Shown here one piece after another: positions 3,101 through 35,067 of a stretch of 39,918 nucleotides of DNA. The notes beneath the pieces were generated by a model, which was given only the letters and a program-made list of their open reading frames with translations, made no database searches and had not been told where the DNA came from. The stretch is taken from positions 1 through 39,918 of IMG/VR virus record IMGVR_UViG_3300017991_000034, one strand, 5' to 3'. The translations under genes were made by a program, and so were the position numbers. This stretch comes from a virus. Every line of letters starts with the position of its first letter. Position 1 is the first letter of the stretch.

Positions 3101-3685
3101 TACTGCTAAAGGAGTTATTGCAGCTGTTCCAGAGCCCACTAACACGCTATGATCCGTTAATGTAGCAAGTCCAGTTCCACCTTCTGTTACCTCTAAAGGA
3201 GTTGTTAATTGTAAATCATCGATAATAACTTGGCCGGTTCCCTTTGCGGTAATGTTTATGTCTATATCCGCATCCGTACCATCAGCTTCTAATGTTGTTC
3301 CAGAAAGAGTTAATCCTGCAGCTGCAACATCTGTATAAAATGTTGTAGCAGTTACTGTAGTTAAAGAAATAGCATCATCTAAATTTATAGTTACAGTTGA
3401 TCCTGCTGAGGTAGTTCCCATGTTAGTACCACCAGCAACAGTTAAAACATTTAACGCTGGTATAGCACTATTAGCATCGTCAGTTAGATATGAAGTTGCT
3501 ATAATTGCAGCTAAATCTATAGTCAAAGTATTAGTTCCAGGATTTCCTGTTGTTGTTATCCCTGTTCCTCCCAAAATATCTATATTACCTACCCCATCTG
3601 GGACTATAGCGCCACCAACATCACCGGTCAAAGTCAGTATAGCTGCTCCAGAAGTTGTATCTAAAAATTGTCCAATTTGGCTCAT
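53..3685 (-). CDS. Large tail fibre / receptor-binding protein (1210 aa), Gly/Thr/Ala/Ser-rich with a repeated module
   Basis: ORF track, with SD TAGGAG upstream. At least 4 copies of a ~35-aa module are present (LTDHSVLVGSGTAAITPLAVGATGETIMGSTGADPGW; ITDHSLIVGSGTGAITELGAATDGQIPIGSTGADPVL; NNALLVGNGTGSPIGSLAVGTTGVILQGSTGNPPAW; LTDHGVLFGSGTSAITASAALTNGQLLVGSTGNDPSV). The same GQ.LIG..G..P.W core occurs in the 758-aa and 863-aa ORFs. Confidence 0.7.
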   Translation of the reverse strand: MSQIGQFLDTTSGAAILTLTGDVGGAIVPDGVGNIDILGGTGITTTGNPGTNTLTIDLAAIIATSYLTDDANSAIPALNVLTVAGGTNMGTTSAGSTVTINLDDAISLTTVTATTFYTDVAAAGLTLSGTTLEADGTDADIDINITAKGTGQVIIDDLQLTTPLEVTEGGTGLATLTDHSVLVGSGTAAITPLAVGATGETIMGSTGADPGWTDSPSFGGSVTAGTGLTVTTGNLNLPDTVATGSSGVVNFGGIRFISNYGTYNTFVGEGSGSVTAGIGGFNTAVGFEALKSITSGTRNAILGDGAGESIDTGDANILLGTSTGGALTSAVYNTFLGKTSGYQVTTGSYNVMIGTSSGSNADGTGYGAGNSAAAANSSNIYICSDGAAESNTIRIGTNGSGDKQQDTTYVAGIYGVTPGGTQNIALIDSNHQLGSVASLTVPLGGTGVSSITDHSLIVGSGTGAITELGAATDGQIPIGSTGADPVLGNIAASSNILSVTNGAGSISLDVNDSLKTSSGFHSWSGGAPYFDDTTIGSFTISQAGTGYIKGVEVTWTGGQTITGLVAGTAYLIYIDSTGTIGKDSTFDDSIYCDNIVLFECVRDSTTPTNNQLTVKENHPYNFPCPVARYLNDTVGTIIENINNGANITLNGTQKIEISGADVLSDDGLYTDIPDSGGTAETFFQMYANGSGKWALHSLSDTFDGYYNNAGTPTAISVSKYAVYSLYISKDDLNAATPKYGAVLDTSQYNNLTSAQTAIANGTIAKPSGELEKLETALLGYIIYSESSSSIVDVLIEKTTLRQTVSTGGTNDASLITTNVTNFNGILSASDTNVQSALETIDDWGASTTNNALLVGNGTGSPIGSLAVGTTGVILQGSTGNPPAWSTATYPSTAAIGDVLVASAANVIGVVTGAATAGYVLTANGAGTAPTFQAATSGTVTSVTAGTNLSDSGTATDPIIDLDAAISGMTGITMADTGSLQTTTVDTDTMLIQGYDVDGTAYVPFITITNANDPTCDLNTGVTIGTKYIYRADGTDVPVADGGTGASTLTDHGVLFGSGTSAITASAALTNGQLLVGSTGNDPSVATLTEGVGIDITNAAGSITVASTGTTLNDQTGTTYTLVLGDAGKHITFTNAAAITVTVPTNAAVAFPIGTVISFSQGGAGQVTFAGAGPPTLQSADSALTTVKIYSGGCMIKILTDTWRFFGDLEA

Positions 3686-3714
3686 TATACGCTCCTAGAT
3701 ATGTTATTTATTAA

Positions 3715-4062
3715 TTAATCTTTACCATAAAAAGAAGTTAAGTAAACTGATCCTGTAGTAGGAGCGTCCACCTGTGTAACATATAATCTCTGACCTTCAG
3801 ATAAGTAGAATCCATTTTCGATAGTTTTATTACCAGAAATATCTAAAATCATATGAGAATATTGTATTAAAGGGAAATGATCAGTTACTCCATCTAGTGA
3901 AAACATTAAAGTAGCGTCTGTATAATTTTGAACCAATATCATTCTTGCAGGATGCTCTAAAGATGTCCCTACACCCATATAAACACCACCTCCAAGAATA
4001 GAACCATGTGCTATTGTTTTAACTTCTTCAGCTAAAAGACGAACTGCATTACTATATGCCAT
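3715..4062 (-). CDS. Small protein of unknown function (115 aa), paralog of the adjacent 4072..4413 gene; possible fibre accessory or assembly protein
   Basis: ORF track, with SD AAAGGA. It aligns with its neighbour: ILVQNYTDATLMFSLDGVTDH...GSVYLTSFYG versus FLRITNDSDTDVIISYDGITGH...GYIYLAGYF. Confidence 0.6.
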   Translation of the reverse strand: MAYSNAVRLLAEEVKTIAHGSILGGGVYMGVGTSLEHPARMILVQNYTDATLMFSLDGVTDHFPLIQYSHMILDISGNKTIENGFYLSEGQRLYVTQVDAPTTGSVYLTSFYGKD

Positions 4063-4071
4063 TTTATTCCT

Positions 4072-4413
4072 TTATTGTTCGTGAAAATAACCAGCAAGAT
4101 AAATATAACCAGATTGTCCAGCAGTACCTTGAGCATATAAAACAGTGCCTTTTTTAACTTTAGCAACATAGTTGCCTGGAGATGAATTAGTTTGAAAGTT
4201 TACTTCAATCGTTTTGCCTTTTGGTACATATTCATGTCCAGTTATTCCATCATAACTTATAATTACATCTGTATCAGAATCATTAGTTATACGTAAGAAA
4301 AAACAAGCCCCCTCAAGACCATCAGTATCAAACGCTGTCCATGTAGCAGCTGTTATTTCAGTTACATCTACTATAGATATAACTAAAGGGATAATGCTAT
4401 TTTTTTGAGACAT
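4072..4413 (-). CDS. Small protein of unknown function (113 aa from the ATG at 4413), tandem paralog of 3715..4062
   Basis: The ORF track starts at a TTG (4425). The ATG at 4413 is preceded by GGAGAG-N5 and is the more likely start. Confidence 0.6.
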   Translation of the reverse strand: MSQKNSIIPLVISIVDVTEITAATWTAFDTDGLEGACFFLRITNDSDTDVIISYDGITGHEYVPKGKTIEVNFQTNSSPGNYVAKVKKGTVLYAQGTAGQSGYIYLAGYFHEQ

Positions 4414-4441
4414 AATACTCTCCAATCAATTTAATATTAAA

Positions 4442-4461
4442 ATGGAGGCATATGCCTCCAT
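4442..4461 (-). terminator. Intrinsic terminator-like hairpin after the 93-aa gene
   Basis: Perfect 20-bp palindrome ATGGAGGCATATGCCTCCAT, followed on the minus strand by UUUAAUAUUAAAUU. Confidence 0.55.
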
Positions 4462-4464
4462 CGA

Positions 4465-4746
4465 TTATTTATCTTCTTTTTTTAAATCTTCAACTGAAGA
4501 CTCAGATTCTTCTTTAGCTTTTGCTTCTTTAGCCTTTGCCTCTTCTATCATTTTTTTGATGACATTTTGGCACTCTATACAAGCTTGCTCACATTCATCT
4601 AATTTAGCTCCAATTGGCATCTCAAATCTATAAACACGATTTTCTTTAACCATATTTATAATTAATGATGGAGCAATCCCAAATTTAAATTCTTTTTCTA
4701 CATTCATTTCTTCTGCTTTAATATCTTTTACTTCTTTTTCGGACAT
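4465..4746 (-). CDS. Acidic, Lys/Glu-rich small protein (93 aa), unknown function
   Basis: ORF track, with SD AAGGAG 7 nt upstream of the ATG. Confidence 0.6.
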   Translation of the reverse strand: MSEKEVKDIKAEEMNVEKEFKFGIAPSLIINMVKENRVYRFEMPIGAKLDECEQACIECQNVIKKMIEEAKAKEAKAKEESESSVEDLKKEDK

Positions 4747-4810
4747 AAAAACTCCTTAAATTAAAAAATTAAACTTACTGAAGATATTTTAACATGTTTC
4801 AAATTTTCTT

Positions 4811-4873
4811 ATTAATCATTGGGAAAATTCTATTGCTATAAATTAATAAAACAACTTTTTCCCAATGATTAAT
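4811..4873. repeat. Perfect 17-bp inverted repeat (ATTAATCATTGGGAAAA / TTTTCCCAATGATTAAT) with a 29-nt spacer
   Basis: Read directly at 4811..4827 and 4857..4873. It lies between the 758-aa fibre gene stop and the 93-aa gene. Confidence 0.85.
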
Positions 4874-4890
4874 ATCTCTAATAAATTGTT

Positions 4891-7167
4891 CTAGGGTTTT
4901 ATTATCCAGAACGTAAGTATTATGTTTCCGTTAAGGCTTGCAGCTCCTGAGTTAATAACATCTACTGTAAACGAACCTGCACCTGGTGTAATGCGTTCAA
5001 TGTTCATTTTTGCATCATTCGCACCTAAATTAGATACGCTTGCTAAAATTGCTGAACTTGCTGTGCATATAGAGTTTGTTATTGTTAATGTTTGTTTTGC
5101 TGCTGCTGCTGTGGTTAATCCTGTAAATGTACCGACCCCTGCATTTGCATTAATAGTCACTGCTGCTGCTGCTTGAGTATCGGTAGCTGGTTCTACTGAA
5201 ATTAAACCAGAAGCATTAAGCGCCATTGCTGATGTTCCAGATTCAATTACAATACCAGCTGCTCCAACCTGATTACCTATTGTAATTGTGCGCTCACCAG
5301 TAGTTCCAATATTGATATTTTGGTCTATATCATCAACCCCGATACCTATTGTTCCGCCAGAAGAATCTAATGTTATGTTTCCAGAAACACTAAGATCGAA
5401 TATTCCAGAGCCTGCATCTACTGTAATATCTCCGGTACCGTTAATATCAAGTGTTCCACCAAAAGTTCCTACACAAGATCCGGATCCTGTTTGAAGAACT
5501 AGGTTGCTTGTTGTATTTGTTGAACCGATTGTTGTTGAGTGTGCTGTAGCTGTTGCGCCAAAACTTGCATTTCCAGTTCCGCAATCAATTACGACACCGG
5601 CTGCTCCATTATTTGAACCTATGGTTGTAGTTCTTTCGCCATCTGTTGCTATGTTTACAGCTTGATCTACATCATCTGTTCCAATACCAATAGTAGAAGC
5701 TGAAGAATCTATAGATATTGCAGCTGCTGTGTCAATTGTTACTGCCCCTGTTGCATTAACATCAAATATTCCACCCGCAGTTAAAGTTAAAGCTCCTGTT
5801 CCAGCCTGAACAGTTGTTGCTGCTGCTCCTGTAGTTGAACCCAACGTAGAAGTATGCGCTACGGCATTTGTTCCTAGATTCAATGCCCCTGTACCACAAT
5901 TTACAACTACTGAAGTTGCCCCTGTACCATTACCTAAAGTAAGAGTTCGTGCAGCTGCTCCAGTACCTATATTAATATTTTGAGCTACAGCATCATTACC
6001 TATTCCAATAATACCTGCAGAAGAATTAAGTTCTAATACGCCAGCAGAGTCAACTGTAACCGCATCTGTTGAAGTTATAGCTACATCACCAGATCCAGAT
6101 TGAATTACTGTAGCTGCAGTTGTATTTGTTGAACCTACAGTTACTGTATGAGCTGCTGCATCAACACCAACATTAATTGCCCCTGTACCTGATTCTAAAT
6201 TTATTGCACCATTAGCGCCTACTACGGAAAGACCACCAGTTCCAAAATCTATATCAATTCCACCAGCAGCATCAGAAGCATTTATATTAATAGCATCAGC
6301 ACTAGCTAATCCAGAAGTAAGAGATAAACCTCCAACATCAGAAAGCAGCTCTATTGATGATACTGAAGTACCTTGATCTGAATGAAGAGATATAGTTTCA
6401 GCTGCACCTGCATCTGCGTGTAAATAAATAGATTGTGGACTATTATCATTTGAAATTATTGTACATGTACCAGATGTCATTCCAAGATTTGCTCCAGCAG
6501 TTAATGCTCCCACTGTAGTAACGTCATCAGCAAGTCTAATACGTACTGTATTTGCTGTTGCACCATCTGTAGTTATATTTGCATCGTAGCCTTCAAAAGT
6601 AGTAAGACCACCACCTGTAGGAGATACCGGACCTCCAGCATCTGTGCCAAAAGTTGAACCTGTAGCACCAGGATTTGAAATTGTAATTGTTCCAGCGCCT
6701 TCTACAATCGTTATACCGCCACCGGCAGTTAAAGTACTCCAAGATGGAGCTAAGCCTGTAGATCCTATTAAAACTTGACCATCTGTGCCTGCAGAACTGG
6801 AAAGTAATCCAGCTGCGGATGATTGAACTACACCTATCCCAAGTATGCCGAAAGTTACACTTCCAGCTGCAATATTAAGATCTCCAGCACTAGCTACAAA
6901 ATCTCCTAAAGTAGCTGTTATATTTCCAGTTGTTGCTGTAATGGAACTAAATGTACCAGTTCCACCACCAGCATTAATCCATACAGCCGAACCAGACGAT
7001 ATGCTTGTAAGAAAATAAGCATCATCATTAACAGTATCTATCCAAACTTTACCGATTTCTAGCTTATCATTAGCAGTAGGAGCACGTTTGGCTACTACTG
7101 GCGCTTCATAATATACATTCTCATATTGATTCGGAGAAAATACATCAATGTCATTTCTTAATCCCAT
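4891..7167 (-). CDS. Fibre / tailspike-like protein (758 aa) with three ~100-aa tandem beta-helix-like repeats
   Basis: ORF track, with SD AAGGAG. Repeat units begin at AAHTVTVGSTNTT, AVAHTSTLGSTTG and ATAHSTTIGSTNTT (about aa 335-650, nt ~5218..6165). An N-terminal GTDGQVLIGSTGLAPSWSTLTAGGGITI module is shared with the other fibre ORFs. Confidence 0.65.
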   Translation of the reverse strand: MGLRNDIDVFSPNQYENVYYEAPVVAKRAPTANDKLEIGKVWIDTVNDDAYFLTSISSGSAVWINAGGGTGTFSSITATTGNITATLGDFVASAGDLNIAAGSVTFGILGIGVVQSSAAGLLSSSAGTDGQVLIGSTGLAPSWSTLTAGGGITIVEGAGTITISNPGATGSTFGTDAGGPVSPTGGGLTTFEGYDANITTDGATANTVRIRLADDVTTVGALTAGANLGMTSGTCTIISNDNSPQSIYLHADAGAAETISLHSDQGTSVSSIELLSDVGGLSLTSGLASADAININASDAAGGIDIDFGTGGLSVVGANGAINLESGTGAINVGVDAAAHTVTVGSTNTTAATVIQSGSGDVAITSTDAVTVDSAGVLELNSSAGIIGIGNDAVAQNINIGTGAAARTLTLGNGTGATSVVVNCGTGALNLGTNAVAHTSTLGSTTGAAATTVQAGTGALTLTAGGIFDVNATGAVTIDTAAAISIDSSASTIGIGTDDVDQAVNIATDGERTTTIGSNNGAAGVVIDCGTGNASFGATATAHSTTIGSTNTTSNLVLQTGSGSCVGTFGGTLDINGTGDITVDAGSGIFDLSVSGNITLDSSGGTIGIGVDDIDQNINIGTTGERTITIGNQVGAAGIVIESGTSAMALNASGLISVEPATDTQAAAAVTINANAGVGTFTGLTTAAAAKQTLTITNSICTASSAILASVSNLGANDAKMNIERITPGAGSFTVDVINSGAASLNGNIILTFWIIKP

Positions 7168-7500: not shown

Positions 7501-7620
7501 ATGGATAATAAGAAATTAACTTGGTTTAGTTTTTTATTAAAAATATTAAAGCTTTTAACACAATTATGGCTTTGGCCTTTTACTATTATTTATTACTTAA
7601 CAAGAAACTATTATGATTAA
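7501..7620 (+). CDS. Hydrophobic micro-protein (39 aa: MDNKKLTWFSFLLKILKLLTQLWLWPFTIIYYLTRNYYD)
   Basis: ATG preceded by GGGGGG-N4. It overlaps the HNH start by 8 nt (ATGATTAA). It is not in the ORF track, being below its size cutoff. Confidence 0.35.
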   Translation: MDNKKLTWFSFLLKILKLLTQLWLWPFTIIYYLTRNYYD

Positions 7621-8443
7621 AAAATGTTTATTTTGTGGACAAGTTTTTAAAACAAAACCTTCTCATGCAGCAAAAAGAAAATGTTGTTCCGTTAAATGCT
7701 TTTCAGCTCTAAGAAAAAATAATCGTACAAAAGAATGCATACAATGTGGTAAGCTTTTTGATCCTAAAGGAGCCAAAAAACAGAGATTTTGTTCACATAA
7801 ATGCCTTGGGCAAAATATAAGAAGGCCGGATAGATTTTGCGTAGAATGTAAAAATTTAATATTAAAACCAAGTAACTATAAATATTGCTCAAAAGAATGT
7901 TATTCAAAATATCAAAAAGGAAATGCAGGAAATCATGAATTTTGGAAAACAGCTACTAAAAAAGAAGGGCTTAAAAGACTTAGAGAACATTTTGAAAAAC
8001 ATGTAATTAAAAAAGACGGTTGTTGGGGTTGGAATGGTTCAAAAACTAAAAAATATAAAAGTTTACGATATTTGGATAAAGATATTTTAGCTCATAGAGC
8101 TTCTTGGTTATTACATAAAGAAGAAATTCCTGAGGGAATATTTATATGCCATAAATGCGATAATCCAGAATGTACAAATCCAGATCATTTATTTCTAGGA
8201 ACTCCGACTGACAATGTACGTGATATGCATAAAAAAGGTAGAGCTAAAATTTTAAAAGGAGAAAATTCTAAACAAGCAAAATTAACCGAAAAACAAGTTA
8301 TAGAAATAAAAAAAATATTATATAATTCTAATTTACCTTCAAATGAAATAGCAAAAATTTATAAAGTTAATTTTGTAACTATACACGATATTAAACATAA
8401 TAAGACCTGGAAACATATAAAAATATCCCCAGATCTTATTTAA
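7613..8443 (+). CDS. Free-standing HNH homing endonuclease (276 aa) with three N-terminal zinc-ribbon repeats and a C-terminal HTH-like tail
   Basis: The core reads CWGWNG...AHRASWLLHKEEIPEGIFICHKCDNPECTNPDHLFLGTPTDN. There are three C-x2-C-x11-14-C-x3-C repeats (CLFCG...CCSVKC; CIQCG...FCSHKC; CVECK...YCSKEC). The tail KLTEKQVIEIKKIL...IAKIYKVNFVTIHDIKHNKTW is typical of phage HNH homing endonucleases. Confidence 0.85.
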   Translation: MIKKCLFCGQVFKTKPSHAAKRKCCSVKCFSALRKNNRTKECIQCGKLFDPKGAKKQRFCSHKCLGQNIRRPDRFCVECKNLILKPSNYKYCSKECYSKYQKGNAGNHEFWKTATKKEGLKRLREHFEKHVIKKDGCWGWNGSKTKKYKSLRYLDKDILAHRASWLLHKEEIPEGIFICHKCDNPECTNPDHLFLGTPTDNVRDMHKKGRAKILKGENSKQAKLTEKQVIEIKKILYNSNLPSNEIAKIYKVNFVTIHDIKHNKTWKHIKISPDLI

Positions 8444-23481: not shown

Positions 23482-24783
23482 TTACAAAGAAAGATAATCT
23501 TTTAAGAATTTAGTCCAGTAAGTATTTTTAGAAAAGTTAGTATTTAAGTACGAGTCATGAATATCCCTGGTTGGAAAATAAATAGATATGCCATTAGCAT
23601 TACATAATCCATGACACTTAACGTTCTTGATAATACTATCTTTTATAATAACAATACCTTTTCTTATTAGATACTCAAGAAGTACTATTCCGGTATTATT
23701 TTCTACACTATCTTCAATTATGGAGAAAGTTTCCAATAAGCTAGAATAGAAATGATACAAATCAATGTAATTCTTATTTATAAATGAAGTAGTTAGATTA
23801 TTGCTATTCCTTATAACCTTTAAAGCATTCATGTACATATTCTTGTCAGATCTTTCAAATAGAAGAATTAAAGCTTCGGCTATTTCATTTATATTAGCTT
23901 CTAATTTAACGTGGTTTTCAAGATCAATTGCCGAAAGCGTATATCCAATGTACGTATTTTGATAAGTATTTTTATATGAAGTAACTATATGTTTAGATAG
24001 ATCTTTTGGAGTAAAGGTTTGCGTTTTAAAGCTATCTAAAATCAAATCATACTTCCATCCTGTAGCAGGTTCTACTTCCTGAGAACCTATCATAATACTT
24101 ACAAAATCTTTTACCTGAGAGCCTATTTCTACCATAGACATAAAGCAGGCATCCATGCCTAAAATATCTAATTTCTTTCTATTTAATAAATTATTATAAA
24201 CTCTGTGCATGCAGCTATATAAATCATAATTCGTTAAATAGGTTTGGAAGACCTCATTAAATCCTATACCTTTGCTATCGACCAGCTTACGATTAAGTTC
24301 TATAAACCCAGTCTTTTTATTTAATATAAATATATCATGCGGATAACTAATACTAAGCTTGCCAAAAACATGTGGATCTTCTATACCAGATCCGTGATCC
24401 CATAAGATTAAAGCATTATGATGAGCAGGAAAGTTAGTTATAGCCCATTCTACAAATCTATAAAGATTTTCTTGCGTTCCGCTTGTACTTTGATAATTAT
24501 TAGACTGAACATCCAGTAAAACAGGAGCATCTTTATTAATTAAATACCTACAAGCTTCATTTTTTCCATGACTATCCACCTGAATCAAAATATTTACATT
24601 ATCATTAGACCCTACACTAATCATTTCATTAATATTTTTAACAGCAAAAGGTTCAAGGTCATTATTAGATACTAAATAAACTATGAAATTCCAATCCTTA
24701 ACTTGGGCCTTAGTGTCAGTAGCAAAAATTGAACAGTTAAATATAAATACTACAAATAATAAAATAGCTCTTAAAAAGACCAT
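23482..24783 (-). CDS. Secreted or signal-anchored clostripain-like (peptidase family C11) cysteine peptidase (433 aa from the ATG at 24783)
   Basis: SD AAGGAGG-N4-ATG at 24783. The hydrophobic N-terminus is FLRAILLFVVFIFNCSIFA. The His motif is NALILWDHGSG and the Cys motif is LDILGMDACFMSMVEIG, in the order and spacing typical of the C11 His/Cys dyad. Confidence 0.6.
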   Translation of the reverse strand: MVFLRAILLFVVFIFNCSIFATDTKAQVKDWNFIVYLVSNNDLEPFAVKNINEMISVGSNDNVNILIQVDSHGKNEACRYLINKDAPVLLDVQSNNYQSTSGTQENLYRFVEWAITNFPAHHNALILWDHGSGIEDPHVFGKLSISYPHDIFILNKKTGFIELNRKLVDSKGIGFNEVFQTYLTNYDLYSCMHRVYNNLLNRKKLDILGMDACFMSMVEIGSQVKDFVSIMIGSQEVEPATGWKYDLILDSFKTQTFTPKDLSKHIVTSYKNTYQNTYIGYTLSAIDLENHVKLEANINEIAEALILLFERSDKNMYMNALKVIRNSNNLTTSFINKNYIDLYHFYSSLLETFSIIEDSVENNTGIVLLEYLIRKGIVIIKDSIIKNVKCHGLCNANGISIYFPTRDIHDSYLNTNFSKNTYWTKFLKDYLSL

Positions 24784-24806
24784 AAAGCCTCCTTTACCAC
24801 CAAATA

Positions 24807-24989
24807 TCAATCACTAATCTTATCCAAAGGGACACTAATATCTACATCCACATCTACAATATCACTATCAATATCAACCTCATAAGTAACAGTATTCTCC
24901 TTTTTATCATGCTTAAAAGATGTATCCATAGTACACCCGCAATAAAAACTTATATAAAAAAGACAAAAAAATAGAAACCATTTATTCAT
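24807..24989 (-). CDS. Small secreted or lipoprotein-like protein (60 aa) with an acidic mature part
   Basis: Strong SD GGGAGG. The N-terminus is MNKWFLFFCLFYISFYCGC (signal-like, Cys after Gly; the lipobox is not canonical). Confidence 0.5.
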   Translation of the reverse strand: MNKWFLFFCLFYISFYCGCTMDTSFKHDKKENTVTYEVDIDSDIVDVDVDISVPLDKISD

Positions 24990-25225: not shown

Positions 25226-25852
25226 ATGTTTAAGAAAATATATAAATTTATCTTATTACTACTATTAAGTAGCAGCACTTTAAGTTCCATGGAAATAAAA
25301 GAGCCGTTCTTGGTAAAACCAGAAAGACTTAAAGATGTAAGGATATTTCACAACGATCGCGGTTTCTTTGCCGAACATAATAATATTGTATCCCCAATAC
25401 AAAATGCTTTTGTAGATCAAGAGTTAAGAAACCTAACGGATGAAAGATTAGGTTATTTACTGGGCATAATACAAAATGTTCAAATAGAAGGTAAAGTATA
25501 TACTTTCTACAAGATTATGAATGTGCCAGAAGAAACCGCTGTAAGAGAGTTAGATAACCTAGTAAGGGTACATGTAGATAATTCCCTCTTTAATTTTTCT
25601 AATTACATTAAAGTATCAGAATTATCTAACGGTGAATTATGCTTGCATTTCAAGGTTAGACTTCCAGGTGGTGGACCATTACTTGGAAATATAGCTTATT
25701 GGGTAGTAAGCGGAACAGGACAAACACTCTTAACAGTCTTAGATGCACTCAGCGGCGGCGCAACTGTCCCTGTAACAGTTGGAGCTAGAACTATAGTACA
25801 AGCTAGCGCATTAGTAATAGGTACAGTTGCAGCAGGAACACCAACCCCATAA
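25226..25852 (+). CDS. Secreted protein, paralog A (208 aa), with a Gly/Ala/Thr/Val-rich hydrophobic C-terminus
   Basis: The signal peptide is MFKKIYKFILLLLLSSSTLSS. Blocks shared with paralog B are EIKEPF, RLPGGGP and AYWV. Confidence 0.65.
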   Translation: MFKKIYKFILLLLLSSSTLSSMEIKEPFLVKPERLKDVRIFHNDRGFFAEHNNIVSPIQNAFVDQELRNLTDERLGYLLGIIQNVQIEGKVYTFYKIMNVPEETAVRELDNLVRVHVDNSLFNFSNYIKVSELSNGELCLHFKVRLPGGGPLLGNIAYWVVSGTGQTLLTVLDALSGGATVPVTVGARTIVQASALVIGTVAAGTPTP

Positions 25853-25866
25853 AGAAAGAATAAAAA

Positions 25867-26694
25867 ATGTTTAAAAAAACAATATTAAGTTTAATAACAA
25901 TATCTGCATTTGCTTTAAATACAGCAAAACCTGTTGAAATAAAAAAGCCTTTTATATTCAGCAAAGAATCTGCTGGAAACATAAAATTACATCATGAAAG
26001 AAATAAATTTTATGTTGAGAAGGACGATAACTTAATCGAAGTAAGCGGTGCTTTTATAAGTTGCCCAATAAGAAATATAGATACTAATACTTTACTTCAT
26101 ATGCTAGGAATTAAAAAGCTAGTAAGCGTAAAAGGGATGTCTCTAGTATTTGAAAGAATAGAAGACATTAGAAAAGTAGATACGAATCTTTTAAAAAATA
26201 AGCCTATAATCGGATTCACAGAAGAAGAAACTGAAGAAATAACAAAACAGTTAGAAAATACTACTAGCTACATAGAGATAATTCAGTTAGATGAAAATGA
26301 ATATGCTTTAAACCTTAAACACAGACTATGCGGTGGTGGACCAGTAAGTGGATTCGTTGCTTACTGGGTAACAAAAGTATTTTGTTACGGAACTGCAGCA
26401 GCTGCTTTGACTACAGCCACAGTAGGTACATGCGGAGCTGCCGGGGCTGTGGCAGGCGGAGCAGCCGCAGCAGCAGGCGCAGGAGCAGCAGCCGCAATTG
26501 GATCTGGAACTGCAGCTACAGTTGCAGGAATAGGTGGAGCTATGGTGGCAGGTGGCTCTGCTGCAGCTGCAGGTGGAGCAGCAGTAGCAACCGGAGCAGT
26601 TCTTGCTAGTGGAGTTTCAACTGCAGTAGCAGCTGTTGAAACTGGATCTACAGCTGTTGGTTTATTTTTTACAGCAATTCCTTTTTTACCATAG
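25867..26694 (+). CDS. Secreted protein, paralog B (275 aa), with a ~110-aa Gly/Ala-rich (glycine-zipper-like) C-terminus
   Basis: The signal peptide is MFKKTILSLITISAFALNTA. The shared blocks are EIKKPF, RLCGGGP and AYWV. The tail GTAAAALTTATVGTCGAAGAVAGGAAAAAGAGAAAAIGSG... forms a local GC-rich island at 26390..26660. Confidence 0.65.
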   Translation: MFKKTILSLITISAFALNTAKPVEIKKPFIFSKESAGNIKLHHERNKFYVEKDDNLIEVSGAFISCPIRNIDTNTLLHMLGIKKLVSVKGMSLVFERIEDIRKVDTNLLKNKPIIGFTEEETEEITKQLENTTSYIEIIQLDENEYALNLKHRLCGGGPVSGFVAYWVTKVFCYGTAAAALTTATVGTCGAAGAVAGGAAAAAGAGAAAAIGSGTAATVAGIGGAMVAGGSAAAAGGAAVATGAVLASGVSTAVAAVETGSTAVGLFFTAIPFLP

Positions 26695-26939: not shown

Positions 26940-26961
26940 GGGGGGACTATGTAGTCCCTCC
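26940..26961. terminator. Hairpin between the convergent plus-strand unit and TerL (bidirectional terminator candidate)
   Basis: GGGGGGACUA-UG-UAGUCCCUCC gives a stem of about 9 bp. On the minus strand it is followed by CUUUUG. Confidence 0.5.
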
Positions 26962-27030: not shown

Positions 27031-30000
27031 CTACCTGAAAAAAGAAGGAATATCTTCATCTCCGTATACAGCAGATCTATATCTCTTCTCAAGTTCTTCG
27101 GCCGATAGACCATCTCTTGTCTTTGGTAATGAAATACATAAGTATCTGAGAGCGTCACAATTAGAAACAAGATACCCGTTAATATAATAACAGTTGTCTC
27201 TTTCAACTGTTAAATCGTATACCTCTTTTGGTGTATCTACTTGATATAATTCCACACTTCTTACCACATGTTTTCTTGATAGAATATTTATTACATTCAA
27301 ACTCTTTATTGCAAATAATACAAAGCCTTTTTTCAAAATCGAGACGAGCCAGGACCCTGGACTTAGTCTTACATTTATTGCTGCAGTATTTTTGCCAAGC
27401 CTGTTTCCCTTGGTACTCCTTTTTGCAAACAACACAAGTTTTCTTGTATTTAATATTCCTACAAGACGGGAGAGAAGTTTGAGCATGCTCCTTATGCCAG
27501 CGCCTTCCTTCTTCGCTACAATGCCATTCTTTAGCTTTCGCGTTTTGTGAACGCAACAAGTTTTTACATTCGTCTGATTGACTCCAAGAACCTGGCCTGG
27601 TTGCATGCCTATGCCCGTGCTCAAATCTCGTAAGCAGCTCAAGGTTTGATATCTCATTATTTTTGGCATTTCCGTCCCTGTGATGAACGACGTAGCCTTT
27701 CGGTATAGGGCCTTTATTTTTCTCCCAAATGTGTCTTTGAAGTGTAGTATGCACGCTTTTACCCGCATAAGAAGTTCCATTACTCTGGAACATTCTTCCT
27801 GAGCCCCCCATGTAGTATTTTGAGGCATTCCATCTATAAATGTACCCATTAAACATGACTTGTTTCTCGTCTTCAGAGATAAGATAGTCTTCTTGAATCC
27901 TTTTGAATCTTGTTCCGCGATATAATATCCAAATATCTTTTTCCATAAATAGTTCCTAAATTTACTAAATGGTTCCAATATGTCACCATATCGCAAACTA
28001 TCAGCATAAGTCAATCCTTCTTGAGTAAATATTTGATGCTCTGGAGTACATTTTATTTTTTTGTTTATTAAACACAACTTTCTTGCATATCTTTTATGTT
28101 TTTTTAAAACTTTTCTTATACCTAAAGGTGTTATAACTTCATCACCTTCCCGTATATCTTTAATAGCTATATTTCCGGATGGAGTTAAAACTTGCATCTC
28201 ACCAGTAAAACAAAAATGGCTGTAAATATCATGAAGCGGCCTAGGCTTATAAACCTTCTTCTTAGAGTCGTATTCTTGCCTATAGTTATTTATGGCTTTA
28301 ATTAACGACTGACATTTAGTTTCATCAATCCATATCTTAGAGAAAGCAGAGCGAACGGATTCTATGCCATCTTCAATAGAAATACTAGGAGCAACCGTAA
28401 ATTTTATTCCTAAATTCTTAGCTTTTTCTAGTCTGGTCATACCTGAACCAAATTCTTTTACTTTAATATCATGAGGAGCTATATGCTTACCATAGATATA
28501 GTCTTTTTGAGCTAAGATTTTAACGTAGTGCTCTAGACCTTCTTTATTTTTTTCATAGCAGTCTATAATTCTTACTGTTTGCCCTATTGTCTGAAAGAAA
28601 ATGATACATGTTGAATCTCTTACTCCTAGATCCCAAGCAGTATGAACTTTAAATCCTGGCTCATAAGGAACCATCCCCAGTTGATTGTTAAGTTTCATCT
28701 TGTCTAAATACTTAGCGTAATAAGCACCCTCAACACCTAAGCTAAACGAACAGTAGTATTCCTGTTGAATTAGATCTTCAGACATCAATCCTTCTTCTCG
28801 TTCCTTTTCTATTTCTCTATAGGGAATATGTCTTGTATCTTCAAGGGTAAGATGATAGGCGAACCAATCTGGGCTATTCTTGGCCACTTGATACAGTTCC
28901 CAGAAGTTGTTCTTGCCACGAGGCGTATTGTGACTAATAAAGCCGTTACTGAAGAAGGAGTGCGTGGATGGTATGACGAAATCGTACACTTCGGATTCTG
29001 ATGCTTCAATAGATTGAACAGGAGAATAAAATAAATTCTCTTTAATTAAGGATTTTAAATACACACTATCATATTTTATTATCAATTTTTTTATTAATCT
29101 ACGAGATATGCGTGACGCATTAGCTATTTCTTTTTTTAAATACTTAAAGTCTAATTTTGAAGGATTTACTGGGTAAACGTTTCCAGATTCTTTTTTAACA
29201 TTGTTAGGAATAAACTTACAGTTTACCTGTTTTCTTTTTAATCTAAATCCTATTTGCGTATAAAATATGTGTGCAAAATATCCAGTTATTTCTAGGTTAT
29301 AAATTGTACTATGCGCCTTCACTTTTTTAGTAGGCTCTTTCTCTTCCTTTCTGATAGAAGATGCTATTCCGAAGTTTAATAAAACTATTTGAAGGTCTCG
29401 AATAAATTTCTTACACGCAGATGTAATCTTTATATATCCACACTTAGAAGGATTTGAATTACTTGTGCCGTCGCCATCAAAAAGACCTTGTAAGAACGCT
29501 TTCAGCTGGGCTCTAGTACATTCAAATAATTTATCTGGAAATGTTTTATTTTTAGCACCATGCCTAAATCCAAGCCATTCCAAAAGTAAACAAAATGTTC
29601 GCGAATTAAAGTTATGGTGTATACCATCTTTAAAAGTAGTAAATCTATTAGAGCGTAAGAATTTTATTATTTCAGGATCTTTTTTATTGGTAATAGTTAC
29701 CTTATTTTTATCGTAGCTTCCATCGGCATGAATAAGACCCAAAAGATAAAAGAAGTCTTTGTCACACGCTCTATCTTCTATTTCCCACCCAGAATGCGGA
29801 TGCTCCTTATGCTTAAACTTAGAAAAATACAATCCTTTTCCAAATACATTCTGTCCATATTGCACTGGAAATAAATCACCTACTTTAATATCAGAGGACT
29901 TCATCCACTCACAACCATTCCATAATGGATGTACAGGAGTACATTCTATTTCGTAACCAGAAGAAAGTTTTATTTTTAAAGTATTCTGATTACCACCAAA

Positions 30001-30633
30001 ATAAAAATCCGTAGCTTTGTTAAAACCATTCAAACCAAAAATAGGTTCATTTAGAGAAGAATATTCTTCTCTTGAATTAGATACCTTACTAATCCTTTTT
30101 AACCCATTTTCTGTTATCACTAATGTATTAGGAGAAACACACGAAATAAAAAGCGCCCATCCATCATTTGCTGCAAGAATAGGACGTATAAATTGATAAG
30201 CGCGTGGATCCTGTATTGCATACTCAGAAAATACGCACCCATAAGGGTTTGAGCCTACAAGGCTATCAATATTATCTGAACCAATAAGCTGTAAGATAGA
30301 CCCGTTAATAAAAGAAATCTTCATTTCCTGCGAATTCTTAGACATTATAAGCTCGTCTGGAATGAAGTCTGTAAACTTTTGACCCGAATTCGTAATTGAG
30401 TCCCAGATTACCTTCTTAGCTTGAGAGTATGTTGGGAATATATAATAGACAATGCAAATTTTCTTAATGCATTGTCTTATAGCTAAATTCCATGCAACAA
30501 TATCTTTACCTGCCCTTCTTGGCATAACTACAAGAATCTTTTTATATTCTTTGTTCTCTAGGGCATCAACTATTGGAATTTGGTATTTTCTTGGAGAAAA
30601 TTTATTTAATACTCTTCTTGTCTGATAGTTCAT
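27031..30633 (-). CDS. terL: Terminase large subunit precursor (1200 aa) containing two inteins; the mature extein product is about 444 aa
   Basis: Extein motifs: Walker A VVMPRRAGKD, Walker B GCVFSEYA, coupling motif ALFIS|TPRGKN, nuclease motifs HTAWDLGVRDST, IAPHD and YSHF|CDALRY. Confidence 0.9.
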   Translation of the reverse strand: MNYQTRRVLNKFSPRKYQIPIVDALENKEYKKILVVMPRRAGKDIVAWNLAIRQCIKKICIVYYIFPTYSQAKKVIWDSITNSGQKFTDFIPDELIMSKNSQEMKISFINGSILQLIGSDNIDSLVGSNPYGCVFSEYAIQDPRAYQFIRPILAANDGWALFISCVSPNTLVITENGLKRISKVSNSREEYSSLNEPIFGLNGFNKATDFYFGGNQNTLKIKLSSGYEIECTPVHPLWNGCEWMKSSDIKVGDLFPVQYGQNVFGKGLYFSKFKHKEHPHSGWEIEDRACDKDFFYLLGLIHADGSYDKNKVTITNKKDPEIIKFLRSNRFTTFKDGIHHNFNSRTFCLLLEWLGFRHGAKNKTFPDKLFECTRAQLKAFLQGLFDGDGTSNSNPSKCGYIKITSACKKFIRDLQIVLLNFGIASSIRKEEKEPTKKVKAHSTIYNLEITGYFAHIFYTQIGFRLKRKQVNCKFIPNNVKKESGNVYPVNPSKLDFKYLKKEIANASRISRRLIKKLIIKYDSVYLKSLIKENLFYSPVQSIEASESEVYDFVIPSTHSFFSNGFISHNTPRGKNNFWELYQVAKNSPDWFAYHLTLEDTRHIPYREIEKEREEGLMSEDLIQQEYYCSFSLGVEGAYYAKYLDKMKLNNQLGMVPYEPGFKVHTAWDLGVRDSTCIIFFQTIGQTVRIIDCYEKNKEGLEHYVKILAQKDYIYGKHIAPHDIKVKEFGSGMTRLEKAKNLGIKFTVAPSISIEDGIESVRSAFSKIWIDETKCQSLIKAINNYRQEYDSKKKVYKPRPLHDIYSHFCFTGEMQVLTPSGNIAIKDIREGDEVITPLGIRKVLKKHKRYARKLCLINKKIKCTPEHQIFTQEGLTYADSLRYGDILEPFSKFRNYLWKKIFGYYIAEQDSKGFKKTILSLKTRNKSCLMGTFIDGMPQNTTWGAQEECSRVMELLMRVKACILHFKDTFGRKIKALYRKATSFITGTEMPKIMRYQTLSCLRDLSTGIGMQPGQVLGVNQTNVKTCCVHKTRKLKNGIVAKKEGAGIRSMLKLLSRLVGILNTRKLVLFAKRSTKGNRLGKNTAAINVRLSPGSWLVSILKKGFVLFAIKSLNVINILSRKHVVRSVELYQVDTPKEVYDLTVERDNCYYINGYLVSNCDALRYLCISLPKTRDGLSAEELEKRYRSAVYGDEDIPSFFR
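27160..28212 (-). mobile_element. Intein 2 in TerL (351 aa, residues C808-N1158): a mini-intein scaffold whose linker is overprinted by an out-of-frame HNH gene
   Basis: It starts CFTGEMQVLTP. Block B is KCTPEHQIF. The C-terminal blocks are EVYDLTVERDNCYYINGYLVSN followed by +1 Cys. The penultimate residue is Ser, not His. It is inserted in the nuclease motif SHF/CDALRY. Confidence 0.75.
27203..27946 (-). CDS. HNH homing endonuclease (247 aa) encoded in the -1 (+2) frame inside intein 2
   Basis: It has its own AGGA-N7-ATG. The HNH motif is GYVVHHRDGNAKNNEISNLELLTRFEHGHRH. Two C-terminal zinc ribbons (CVVCKKEY...YCSNKC; CIICNKEF...TCGKKC) resemble those of the 7613..8443 HNH. Confidence 0.8.
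   Translation of the reverse strand: MEKDIWILYRGTRFKRIQEDYLISEDEKQVMFNGYIYRWNASKYYMGGSGRMFQSNGTSYAGKSVHTTLQRHIWEKNKGPIPKGYVVHHRDGNAKNNEISNLELLTRFEHGHRHATRPGSWSQSDECKNLLRSQNAKAKEWHCSEEGRRWHKEHAQTSLPSCRNIKYKKTCVVCKKEYQGKQAWQKYCSNKCKTKSRVLARLDFEKRLCIICNKEFECNKYSIKKTCGKKCGIISSRYTKRGIRFNS
28927..30141 (-). mobile_element. Intein 1 in TerL (405 aa, residues C165-N569) with a LAGLIDADG endonuclease domain
   Basis: It starts CVSPNTLV. Block B is CTPVHPLW. The LAGLIDADG motifs are LLGLIHADGS and LQGLFDGDGT. It ends FISHN followed by +1 Thr. It is inserted inside the ATPase coupling motif (IS/TP). Codons were checked at both junctions. Confidence 0.85.
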
Positions 30634-34064: not shown

Positions 34065-34301
34065 ATGTTTAGGATAGCAAGAAAAGGTACGAATCCTGAT
34101 TTGATTAAATACTTAAGTAAAATATCTAAATATGATCCACCTCATAAGTATTCAAAGTTGGTTAGTATTTACTTAGAAAGTCATTACATGAATATTTGTA
34201 AAAATACGCCATCCAAAATAGAATCAGAAATAAAAAAGTTTTTTCCGGAAATGATTATTTTTTTTAAGGAGATTCATGAAAGATTCGATAAAAGAAACTA
34301 A
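34065..34301 (+). CDS. Hypothetical early protein (78 aa)
   Basis: ORF track. It is the first gene of the rightward operon and overlaps the ERF start. Confidence 0.45.
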   Translation: MFRIARKGTNPDLIKYLSKISKYDPPHKYSKLVSIYLESHYMNICKNTPSKIESEIKKFFPEMIIFFKEIHERFDKRN

Positions 34302-35067
34302 CGCTAAACTAAGCGAACGAGAATCGTTTTTAGACCAACTTAATTCACTTAGGGCCCTAGAGTCTTATGTAAGTGAAAGAGTTGTAGCTACCCTGAAGTC
34401 TATCCCTGAGGATAAGTATGAATCTGATGATACTAAAGAGATTAATATAGCTCTTTCAAAAGCGCAGGGAGAATTTCCTTCTATTGGTTACAATAAGGAG
34501 AATCCATACTTTAAAAATAAATATACTGATCTTGATAGCATAGTAAAAGCTATTAGGCCTGCTCTTAATAAGAACGGCTTATCTATAACTCATCAAACTA
34601 TTATTACTAAAGAAGGTATGACCGTACTTAGGTCTAGAGTTAGGCATAATTCTGGTCAATGGATAGAAACTAGAGCAAGAATTATTCCTACAAAATCAGA
34701 TCCTCAAAGCTATGCAAGCGCTCTTACATACATGAAAAGATATTCCCTTATGGCATTAATTAATGTTACAACAAGTGATGATATATCAGATGATGATGCT
34801 GAAAGAAATATGTATACTCTAAGAGATACAAAAGCTAAAGGCGTAGCTTTAAACACTAAATATAACCCTAAAGATCAAGCTTCTGATGTTATAACAAAAG
34901 AACAACTAGAAGAACTTGAGTATGAGCTTGGCGAATATGATGATATAGCTGAAATGGTATTAGATGGATTAAAGCTTCAATCTCTTGCAGATATGCCTAA
35001 AAATAAATACTTATCAGCAGTTAAAAGAATTAGAGAAATAAAAAATGCTAGAGATGGTGTAAATTAG
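34276..35067 (+). CDS. erf: ERF-family single-strand annealing recombinase (263 aa)
   Basis: SD AAGGAG. ALSKAQGEFPSIGYNKENPYFKNKYTDLDSIVKAIRPALNKNGLSITHQ...YASALTYMKRYSLMALINV matches the ERF family pattern. Confidence 0.8.
   Translation: MKDSIKETNAKLSERESFLDQLNSLRALESYVSERVVATLKSIPEDKYESDDTKEINIALSKAQGEFPSIGYNKENPYFKNKYTDLDSIVKAIRPALNKNGLSITHQTIITKEGMTVLRSRVRHNSGQWIETRARIIPTKSDPQSYASALTYMKRYSLMALINVTTSDDISDDDAERNMYTLRDTKAKGVALNTKYNPKDQASDVITKEQLEELEYELGEYDDIAEMVLDGLKLQSLADMPKNKYLSAVKRIREIKNARDGVN

Follow-up and report, generated by a model that had tools for sequence, protein, structure and literature searches.

The terL locus and its two inteins

The window analysed here is a complete stretch of viral DNA of 39,918 nt (IMG/VR record IMGVR_UViG_3300017991_000034), and its subject is an intein in the gene for the terminase large subunit (terL) that very likely carries a homing endonuclease gene of the HNH_3 family in a different reading frame. 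The terL open reading frame (ORF) lies on the minus strand at 27031..30633 and encodes a 1200-aa precursor composed of a 444-aa terminase large subunit and two inteins. Intein 1 (aa 165-569; 28927..30141, minus strand) is inserted at FIS/TPRG, where the slash marks the insertion point, and is canonical in having a LAGLIDADG endonuclease in frame; it matches Pfam Intein_splicing (E 2.3e-20) and LAGLIDADG_3 (E 4.7e-20). Intein 2 (aa 808-1158, 351 aa; 27160..28212, minus strand) is inserted at SHF/CDALRY and is non-canonical. A single terL gene is thereby host to inteins of both types.

Intein 2 has an 85-aa N-terminal splicing region with Cys1 and block B CTPEH (27958..28212, minus strand) and a C-terminal splicing region with blocks F and G, VYDLTVERDNCYYINGYLVSN (27160..27276, minus strand), the latter marked by invariant columns in a seven-sequence alignment (A2). 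The intein begins with CFTGEM (C808) and ends at YLVSN1158/C1159, and these residues are kept in its homologues, which occupy the same terL insertion site. The TxxH motif of block B is present as C-TPEH at aa 861-865, where SEEH of the gp41-1 intein aligns, and Pfam Vint and Hint_2 match aa 808-872 of the N-terminal region. Removal of both inteins in silico yields a 444-aa protein that aligns with the intein-less TerL of Pelagibacter phage HTVC106P (38% identity, E 4e-94) and does so gap-free across both junctions, ALFIS/TPRGKN and HDIYSHF/CDALRY. This alignment of the spliced product defines the boundaries of intein 2 and shows that those proposed in a first-pass annotation, made from the DNA letters and their translations, were exact. 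A nucleotide search of GenBank phages with the terL region returned weak pelagiphage terL matches alone; the search at protein level was the productive one.

Deleting the middle of intein 2 in silico, so that its first 85 and last 39 residues plus two extein residues remain, gives a mini-intein whose residues 6-123 align to residues 9-127 of the 128-aa gp41-1 intein (6QAZ, E 4e-6). Its scores also exceed the Pfam cut-offs, at 30.0 bits for PT-HINT (27.7 required) and 28.5 bits for Vint (27 required). The natural split point of gp41-1 is exactly where the linker and HNH gene are found, and this position is the classical site of endonuclease insertion. Intein 2 is thus predicted to be a contiguous class-1-type mini-intein with a splicing domain of ~125 aa that is related to gp41-1. 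That it undergoes protein splicing would be expected from the essentiality of terL and from the open reading frame.

An HNH ORF nested out of frame in intein 2

Between the splicing regions of intein 2 lies an ORF of 247 codons plus a stop (27203..27946, minus strand) in the -1 frame relative to terL. Counted from the start of terL, the ORF begins at offset 2 (mod 3), which makes terL the +1 frame of the HNH ORF. Over the 744 nt of this ORF, 28 stops occur in the third frame and 0 in that of terL. Stops close the HNH frame everywhere else in the region, including three codons before the ATG and directly after the end of the ORF, and the last 24 codons of the ORF overlap the C-terminal splicing region in conserved block F. 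Read in the terL frame, the same DNA (27205..27945, minus strand; precursor aa 897-1143) is a read-through linker with 0 stops, which had no match to any Pfam family, even at E<=10, and no meaningful match among PDB sequences. The nested position, coordinates and frames of the ORF agree with the first-pass annotation, as does the lack of an endonuclease motif in the linker. Whereas the endonuclease of intein 1 is in frame with its host, that of intein 2 is at offset 2. The combination of an intact endonuclease ORF in another frame with an uninterrupted intein frame is that of a non-canonical intein, and the absence of a stop in the terL frame sets the locus apart from a fractured gene.

The HNH ORF matches Pfam HNH_3 with an E value of 1.3e-16 and 60.4 bits (cut-off 24.8), and 30 homologues of about 170-240 aa were found. 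In a 30-sequence alignment (A1), the catalytic motif HHRDGNAKNNEISNLELLTRFEHGHRH (HNH aa 88-114; 27605..27685, minus strand) has invariant residues H89, D91 and H110 and nearly invariant residues H88, N96, N97, N101 and H114. Two C-terminal Cys4 zinc-ribbon-like motifs follow (C171/C174/C188/C192 and C209/C212/C227/C231; 27254..27436, minus strand), and their eight cysteines are invariant or nearly so in A1. An AlphaFold2 (AF2) model of the protein has a mean predicted local distance difference test score (pLDDT) of 89.1, with high values in the zinc-ribbon region. The predicted protein comprises a beta region at the N-terminus, the HNH core and the pair of zinc ribbons. The top PDB fold match of the model, a partial one, is I-HmuI (1u3e, probability 1.00). 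A direct phmmer search of PDB sequences with the HNH protein gave no match, and I-HmuI surfaced in the fold search alone. Given the family match, the conserved ligands and the predicted fold, the HNH ORF looks functional.

The terL frame is open at all overprinted loci

Stops are naturally scarce in the +1 frame of a coding ORF, where they arise only at codon junctions of the type NTA followed by A or G and NTG followed by A. As a model of chance, synonymous codons of the HNH ORF were resampled and stops in the +1 frame were counted. For the window, 3.5-7.9 stops were expected in the terL frame versus 0 observed, with P(0 stops) of 0.006-0.01 under the ORF's own codon usage and 0/20000 under terL codon usage. 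The argument that a second stop-free frame of this length is very unlikely by chance was therefore overstated in the first-pass annotation, since terL occupies the stop-poor frame.

Searching with the intein in the terL frame, retrieving the contig of the closest HNH homologue and scanning IMG/VR gave 12 distinct metagenomic or IMG/VR loci with the overprinted layout (the window, L001-L004, L015, L016, L017, L022, L024, L026 and L030). The matches to the terL-frame intein cover the full query, linker included, and their contigs all hold an intact HNH ORF in the same relative frame; the contig of the closest HNH homologue shows the same nested layout. The HNH proteins of the 11 other loci are 35-65% identical to that of the window. 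At all 12 loci the terL frame has 0 stops and the other frame has 19-30. Four GenBank phages with an HNH homologue inside one long terL coding sequence (CDS) likewise have the offset of 2 and 0 terL-frame stops (4/4), and third-frame stops over the 12 loci and these four phages number 13-36. Synonymous permutation at each of the 12 loci predicted a mean of 1.7-6.6 stops, with P(0) from 0 to 0.056, and the observed number was below expectation at every one of them. Six free-standing or split-flanked HNH relatives have 5-16 stops in the corresponding frame, matching their own permutation expectation. The presence of 0 stops in ~16 overprinted sequences versus 5-16 in the free or split relatives argues that the terL frame is kept stop-free by selection. 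These comparative data, and not the statistics of a single sequence, are decisive, and the dual-frame layout is real.

The two frames differ in what is conserved. Since the pairs are too divergent for dN/dS (the ratio of nonsynonymous to synonymous change; amino acid identity <=65%), frame-wise identity and divergence by codon position were used in its place. Over the same alignment columns, mean pairwise identity is 43.5% in the HNH frame versus 28.2% in that of terL, with the former the higher in 66/66 pairs. Nucleotide divergence at HNH codon positions 1, 2 and 3 is 0.43, 0.39 and 0.57, so that position 3 is the most variable. These values indicate that the HNH frame codes for protein in the usual sense and is conserved as such, and that between the splicing blocks the only apparent constraint on the terL frame is to stay free of stops. 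The situation is reversed at the 3' end, where the last 24 HNH codons overlap conserved intein block F. The proposal that both readings are under selection thus stands for the HNH frame as a protein; for the terL-frame linker it is reduced to the avoidance of stops.

Probable initiation site of the HNH gene

A Shine-Dalgarno (SD)-like AGGA, read from the sequence, is located 7 nt before the HNH ATG (27954..27957, minus strand), as had been noted earlier, and overlaps the last HNH-frame stop, TAG 27958..27956. The motif recurs: an SD-like tetramer is present at -20..-4 of the HNH start in 11/12 metagenomic loci, compared with a background frequency of 13% and with 16/24 large genes of the window phage. 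GenBank nested cases are also SD-like, with AAGGAG in phiCDHM19 and GGAGG in LS06-2018-MD07. The motif is kept though the overlying terL-frame amino acids differ (R-N-Y, S-R-F and H-K-G), and the start codon and the next residue, Glu, are conserved among the loci. Conservation of the SD-like motif and start, while an A-rich, potentially slippery run near the start is not conserved, favours independent initiation, which is the best-supported route by which the HNH protein may be made. A candidate -1 frameshift site at GGAAAAAG was rejected, as it is not conserved among homologues.

Free-standing, split, overprinted and decayed relatives

The four GenBank phages with the nested layout are Clostridium phage phiCDHM19 (L032, terL CDS 443..2842), Tetrasphaera phage TJE1 (L033, 1089..3275), Acinetobacter phage vB_AbaM_Highwayman (L034, 888..3170) and Rhodobacteraceae phage LS06-2018-MD07 (L035, 1044..3092). 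Each is annotated with one long terL CDS (682-799 aa), and both the intein and the nested out-of-frame HNH ORF are unannotated. The annotation of phiCD119 breaks the corresponding region into three pieces (L040). Possible further nested cases are found in Vibrio phages 1.245.O (NC_055736.1, 6349..6789) and 1.238.A (MG592603.1, 5920..6360), where weak HNH matches (E 5e-5 and 2e-4) fall under features annotated as 'terminase large subunit' and 'hint domain protein'.

Other members of the HNH family occur in different states at or next to the same terL site. Free-standing relatives lie directly beside an intein-less terL in L005, L010/L011, L012, PAE1, CL2, vB_EauM-23, Shemara and BP10; in L010/L011 the HNH gene is downstream. 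The HNH gene is situated between the halves of a truly split terL intein, at the same site, in L007 and L008, and L013/L014 (2678..5224) has a split-intein terL on one strand with the HNH gene antisense between the halves. In Shemara and L013 the HNH relative is on the opposite strand. A neighbour-joining tree places the window in a clade of nine overprinted genes with 99% support, and elsewhere nested Highwayman pairs with free BP10 (99% bootstrap) and split L008 pairs with free L010 (87%). This close kinship of nested and free forms elsewhere in the tree shows that the state has changed more than once. The frame read by the host was the endonuclease gene's +1 frame in every nested case found, and it is in this frame that the fewest stops have to be removed.

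Decayed copies were also found. In L020/L021, whose extein is closest to that of the window (81% aa identity), two stops interrupt the HNH frame and a deletion of 402 nt has removed the catalytic core, and in L023 only the two ends of the HNH ORF remain; the terL frame is open in both. Such sporadic spread and decay are typical of selfish endonuclease genes. The HNH remnants of L020 (3928..4572) and L021 are 87-88% identical to the window in nucleotides, where the extein reaches 71% and the N block of the intein 68%. Either the endonuclease segment could have had a recent history of its own, or dual coding could have slowed its change. Compared with L015, L022 has an extein nearer to that of the window, yet its intein and HNH gene are more distant. 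This incongruence between extein and intein hints at horizontal movement. L015 itself (IMGVR_UViG_3300022874_000030, 2500..6915) has a 1472-aa terL ORF with apparently three inteins, at DNPD/S, EYY/C and SHA/C. None of these is at the FIS/T site of the window, so this TerL group has at least four intein insertion sites.

Other genes in the window

A second HNH_3 gene (7613..8443, plus strand; 276 aa; Pfam E 1.3e-9) also matches PHROG endonuclease families and lies on the strand opposite to its neighbours. Its protein has zinc-ribbon-like repeats that resemble the C-terminus of the intein HNH protein, here placed N-terminal of the HNH core, and the gene is probably a free-standing homing endonuclease gene. 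An ERF-family recombinase gene (34276..35067, plus strand; Pfam E 8.9e-22), on the minority strand, could serve the recombination needed for homing. A clostripain-family gene (Peptidase_C11; 23482..24810, minus strand; Pfam E 8.6e-41), unusual for a small phage genome, is located between the portal gene and the terL region. Two adjacent paralog-like ORFs (25226..25852 and 25867..26694, plus strand), opposite in strand to terL, have signal-peptide-like N-termini (MFKK...), a common ...RL(P/C)GGGP... motif and Gly/Ala-rich tails, and match no Pfam family. A consensus scan identified a terminator-like hairpin downstream of the terL stop (26943..26958, minus strand).

Discussion

What kind of element is intein 2? 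We consider it very likely that it is a contiguous terL intein on which an I-HmuI-like homing endonuclease gene of the HNH_3 family, translated separately, is overprinted in the -1 frame. This explanation builds on the observation of two open frames, on how these are conserved and constrained, on the domains identified, on an excision that is exact in silico, and on the related forms that are free, split or decayed. The manner in which the element might work can be outlined as follows. Ribosomes translating terL would pass through the HNH gene in its +1 frame and produce ~247 aa of filler with no recognisable fold. The halves of the splicing domain would then associate and intein 2 would be excised together with its filler, which, along with excision of intein 1, would leave the 444-aa terminase. 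Other ribosomes would initiate at the AGGA-N7-ATG (27957..27944) and make the free 247-aa HNH protein. In a mixed infection the nuclease would be expected to cut or nick intein-less terL alleles near ...SHF/CDAxRY..., and homing would follow as repair copies both intein and endonuclease gene into the allele that was cut. The intein would both maintain terL function and interrupt the nuclease target. Selection would act on the amino acids of the HNH frame and, between the splicing blocks, on the terL frame only for the absence of stops. Four elements of this scheme, namely translation from the internal start, splicing despite the filler, the nuclease target and homing, we infer from the sequence.

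Several results weigh against this explanation. The penultimate residue of intein 2 is Ser (VSN) and not the usual His, as in the whole clade of the window. The penultimate His is found in the Highwayman and L007 inteins, and several active inteins can do without it. When intein 2 was modelled whole in the terL frame from alignment A2, AF2 gave a mean pLDDT of 35 throughout, the HINT blocks included; this model neither confirms the HINT fold nor shows disorder of the linker, and it was not used as evidence. The open terL frame of the window taken alone is only moderately significant under the ORF's own codon usage (P(0) ~0.006-0.01) and is suggestive. The fold match to I-HmuI is partial, with template modelling (TM) scores of 0.31/0.42, an E value of 0.012 and 135 aligned columns. 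Two candidate controls of HNH expression were rejected. Hairpins that mask the start have been reported for some free-standing endonuclease genes, and a predicted stem at 27913..27997 (minus strand), in which GCGAUAUGGUG... pairs with ...UAUUAUAUCGC, encloses the HNH SD and start; its z score is -1.4, however, and 22/200 shuffled sequences fold equally well. An internal sigma-70-type promoter upstream of the HNH gene was not supported either, as the 8 sites found versus 5.5 +/- 2.1 expected represent no enrichment.

Five other explanations were weighed, and even jointly they appear unlikely. The HNH domain might really be the in-frame domain of a canonical intein, displaced by two compensating frameshift errors in the assembly. 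In-frame HNH inteins exist in the cited literature and a single metagenomic contig can contain indel errors, yet this explanation has a practically negligible chance, since it leaves the stop-free terL frame unexplained and the same frame relation with 0 stops recurs in ~16 independent assemblies or isolates at 25-65% protein identity. The recurrence excludes the compensating errors that the first-pass annotation had itself named as a possible refutation, and the HNH frame is moreover closed by stops three codons before its ATG and directly after its end. Programmed -1 frameshifting from terL, which would produce a fusion of the N-terminal part of TerL and the N-terminal half of the intein (IntN) to HNH or, with two shifts, an in-frame intein, is very hard to reconcile with the same stops, which at the various loci occur 1-12 codons before the HNH start and leave almost no space for a shift site. 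In the window and L002 an A-rich run that might be slippery does cover the HNH start, read as uGG AAA AAG in the terL frame, but L001 (GTGGAAGAAG), L003 (ATGGAAAATC) and L016 (ATGGCAGAAG) do not keep it, and what is conserved instead is a start codon with an SD-like motif upstream. The two-shift version also fails to explain the open terL frame. It is highly improbable, too, that intein 2 is a functional split intein, with terL made as two polypeptides through termination or drop-off and internal re-initiation, joined in trans, and with an open frame that is incidental. Close relatives L007, L008 and L013 are truly split, with HNH between the ORFs for IntN and the C-terminal half (IntC), and gp41-1, the nearest solved intein, is naturally split at the same position. 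Linker-frame stops are nevertheless 0 at all overprinted loci versus 5-16 in free or split relatives, and the decayed copies L020 and L023 are still open in terL, which argues that read-through is required.

The two remaining alternatives concern the HNH protein itself. HNH proteins of the HK97 gp74 type reportedly work with terminase, and the HNH protein of the window could likewise be an accessory nuclease for packaging and not a homing endonuclease. The finding that the family is almost always inside or beside terL is in keeping with such a role. We judge it improbable in view of the sporadic distribution of the family and its decay or deletion with terL intact (L020/L021 and L023), its location in inteins and split inteins, the opposite strand of some relatives (Shemara and L013), and an HNH_3, I-HmuI-like fold with zinc-ribbon DNA-binding modules that is not of the short gp74 type. 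Somewhat less improbable, though still doubtful, is that the HNH ORF of the window is an inactive relic that has not yet acquired stops. The homing-cycle model predicts decay after fixation, and L020, the closest relative by extein identity, has already decayed. On the other hand, all invariant catalytic and zinc residues are present in the window, the fold is confidently predicted and the start and SD are intact, and an HNH frame free of selection would be expected to gain stops, as in L020.

A contiguous intein with an overprinted endonuclease gene is not a categorically new architecture; it is of a recently described kind, and the first-pass annotation's statement that no example was known is outdated. 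Gorbalenya (1998), as cited by others, proposed endonucleases in alternate frames of inteins. Gosselin, Arsenault and Gogarten (2025; bioRxiv 10.1101/2025.01.02.630785) described actinophage inteins with antisense LAGLIDADG or VSR-like endonucleases and a same-strand endonuclease VII-like endonuclease in 'frame 3', listed the terminase large subunit among four host protein types of non-canonical inteins as a group, and proposed that such inteins originate when an intein is invaded by a free-standing endonuclease gene. With the intein taken as frame 1, their 'frame 3' appears to match the relative frame found here, and intein 2 shares with these inteins a same-strand endonuclease, an in-frame middle without a recognisable fold and a nested endonuclease related to free-standing phage genes. 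The nuclease families differ, being IPR004211 endonuclease VII-like there and HNH_3, I-HmuI-like with two zinc ribbons here. The hosts differ as well, with another intein lineage in actinophages there and an AT-rich phage with a pelagiphage-like TerL here, together with Clostridioides, Acinetobacter and Rhodobacteraceae phages; a tblastn search with the window HNH protein found no actinophage except Tetrasphaera phage TJE1. Phillips, DeSimone and Gogarten (2026; bioRxiv 10.64898/2026.09.14.751524) reported frame-specific selection in a cyanobacterial dnaX intein with an out-of-frame LAGLIDADG endonuclease. That intein is similarly contiguous, with an overlapping-frame endonuclease under purifying selection, a relaxed intein frame and mini-intein relatives, but it has a LAGLIDADG endonuclease in cellular dnaX where ours has an HNH endonuclease in phage terL.

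The 'fractured genes' of Dassa et al. (2009; PMC2677866), in which a free-standing homing endonuclease gene lies between the halves of a split intein, and the model in that study that links the states, are also close to what is seen here. The endonuclease gene lies at the same place within the intein and overlaps the coding region of IntC at its 3' end, gp41-1 comes from that study, and fractured terL relatives with the same HNH family exist (L007, L008 and L013). In contrast to fractured genes, the host frame of the window has no stop, the intein is contiguous and cis-splicing is expected, and the endonucleases of Dassa et al. are Vsr-like or GIY-YIG, with HNH merely predicted. The ShiLan domain (Arsenault et al. 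2025; PMC11855218) is an insertion in an actinophage DNA methylase that hides an HNH out of frame. As in intein 2, the inserted DNA carries an overprinted HNH gene, has no stops in the frame of the host and evolves in a homing-like manner. Unlike intein 2, it has no splicing domain, so its filler stays in the host protein, and it has no detectable ribosome-binding site where a conserved SD-like motif is present here.

An analogy with group I introns that carry a free-standing endonuclease gene had been drawn in the first-pass annotation and seems apt. In both cases a splicing element protects the host gene and a separately translated nuclease gives mobility, although intron splicing occurs at the RNA level and the host frame need not stay open. 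A free-standing endonuclease gene paired with an endonuclease-less intron is reportedly the basis of 'collaborative homing', to which the same likeness and difference apply. In the literature searched there was no paper linking inteins with phiCD119, phiCDHM19, TJE1 or Highwayman. What appear to be new here are the nuclease family (HNH_3, I-HmuI-like, with two zinc ribbons), the breadth of hosts and the presence of all states in one family.

The terL element provides an independent and unusually well-replicated case of an intein whose endonuclease is a separate overlapping gene, and it supports the view of intein origins in which the splicing domain came first and the endonuclease invades later. 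With one HNH family in four states at or next to the same terL site, the gene-breaking steps of Dassa et al. (2009) become directly comparable. The nested element has cultivable carriers in phiCDHM19, TJE1 and Highwayman, and the four GenBank phages in which the intein and nested HNH gene were missed expose a gap in annotation. About 250 aa of essentially unconstrained filler are likely tolerated at the endonuclease-insertion site, which would be relevant to intein engineering if splicing proves true. One possibility is that the out-of-frame layout is maintained as it uncouples nuclease dosage from the highly expressed late gene terL.

On a broader scale, the pairing of HNH_3 genes with terL inteins may represent a widespread, unreported lineage of overprinted inteins, spread over phages that are marine or AT-rich and over those of Clostridioides, Acinetobacter, Tetrasphaera and Rhodobacteraceae, whose members switch repeatedly among four states (free, split, overprinted and decayed); we hold this wider proposal tentatively, as an idea that falls somewhat short of being probable. 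If it is true, the lineage could account for the finding that the +1 frame of the endonuclease gene, poor in stops, is always the one read by the host, and a single nonsense mutation in the read-through linker might turn a contiguous intein into a split one. The terL inteins would then form a natural series for how inteins gain endonucleases and how split inteins arise.

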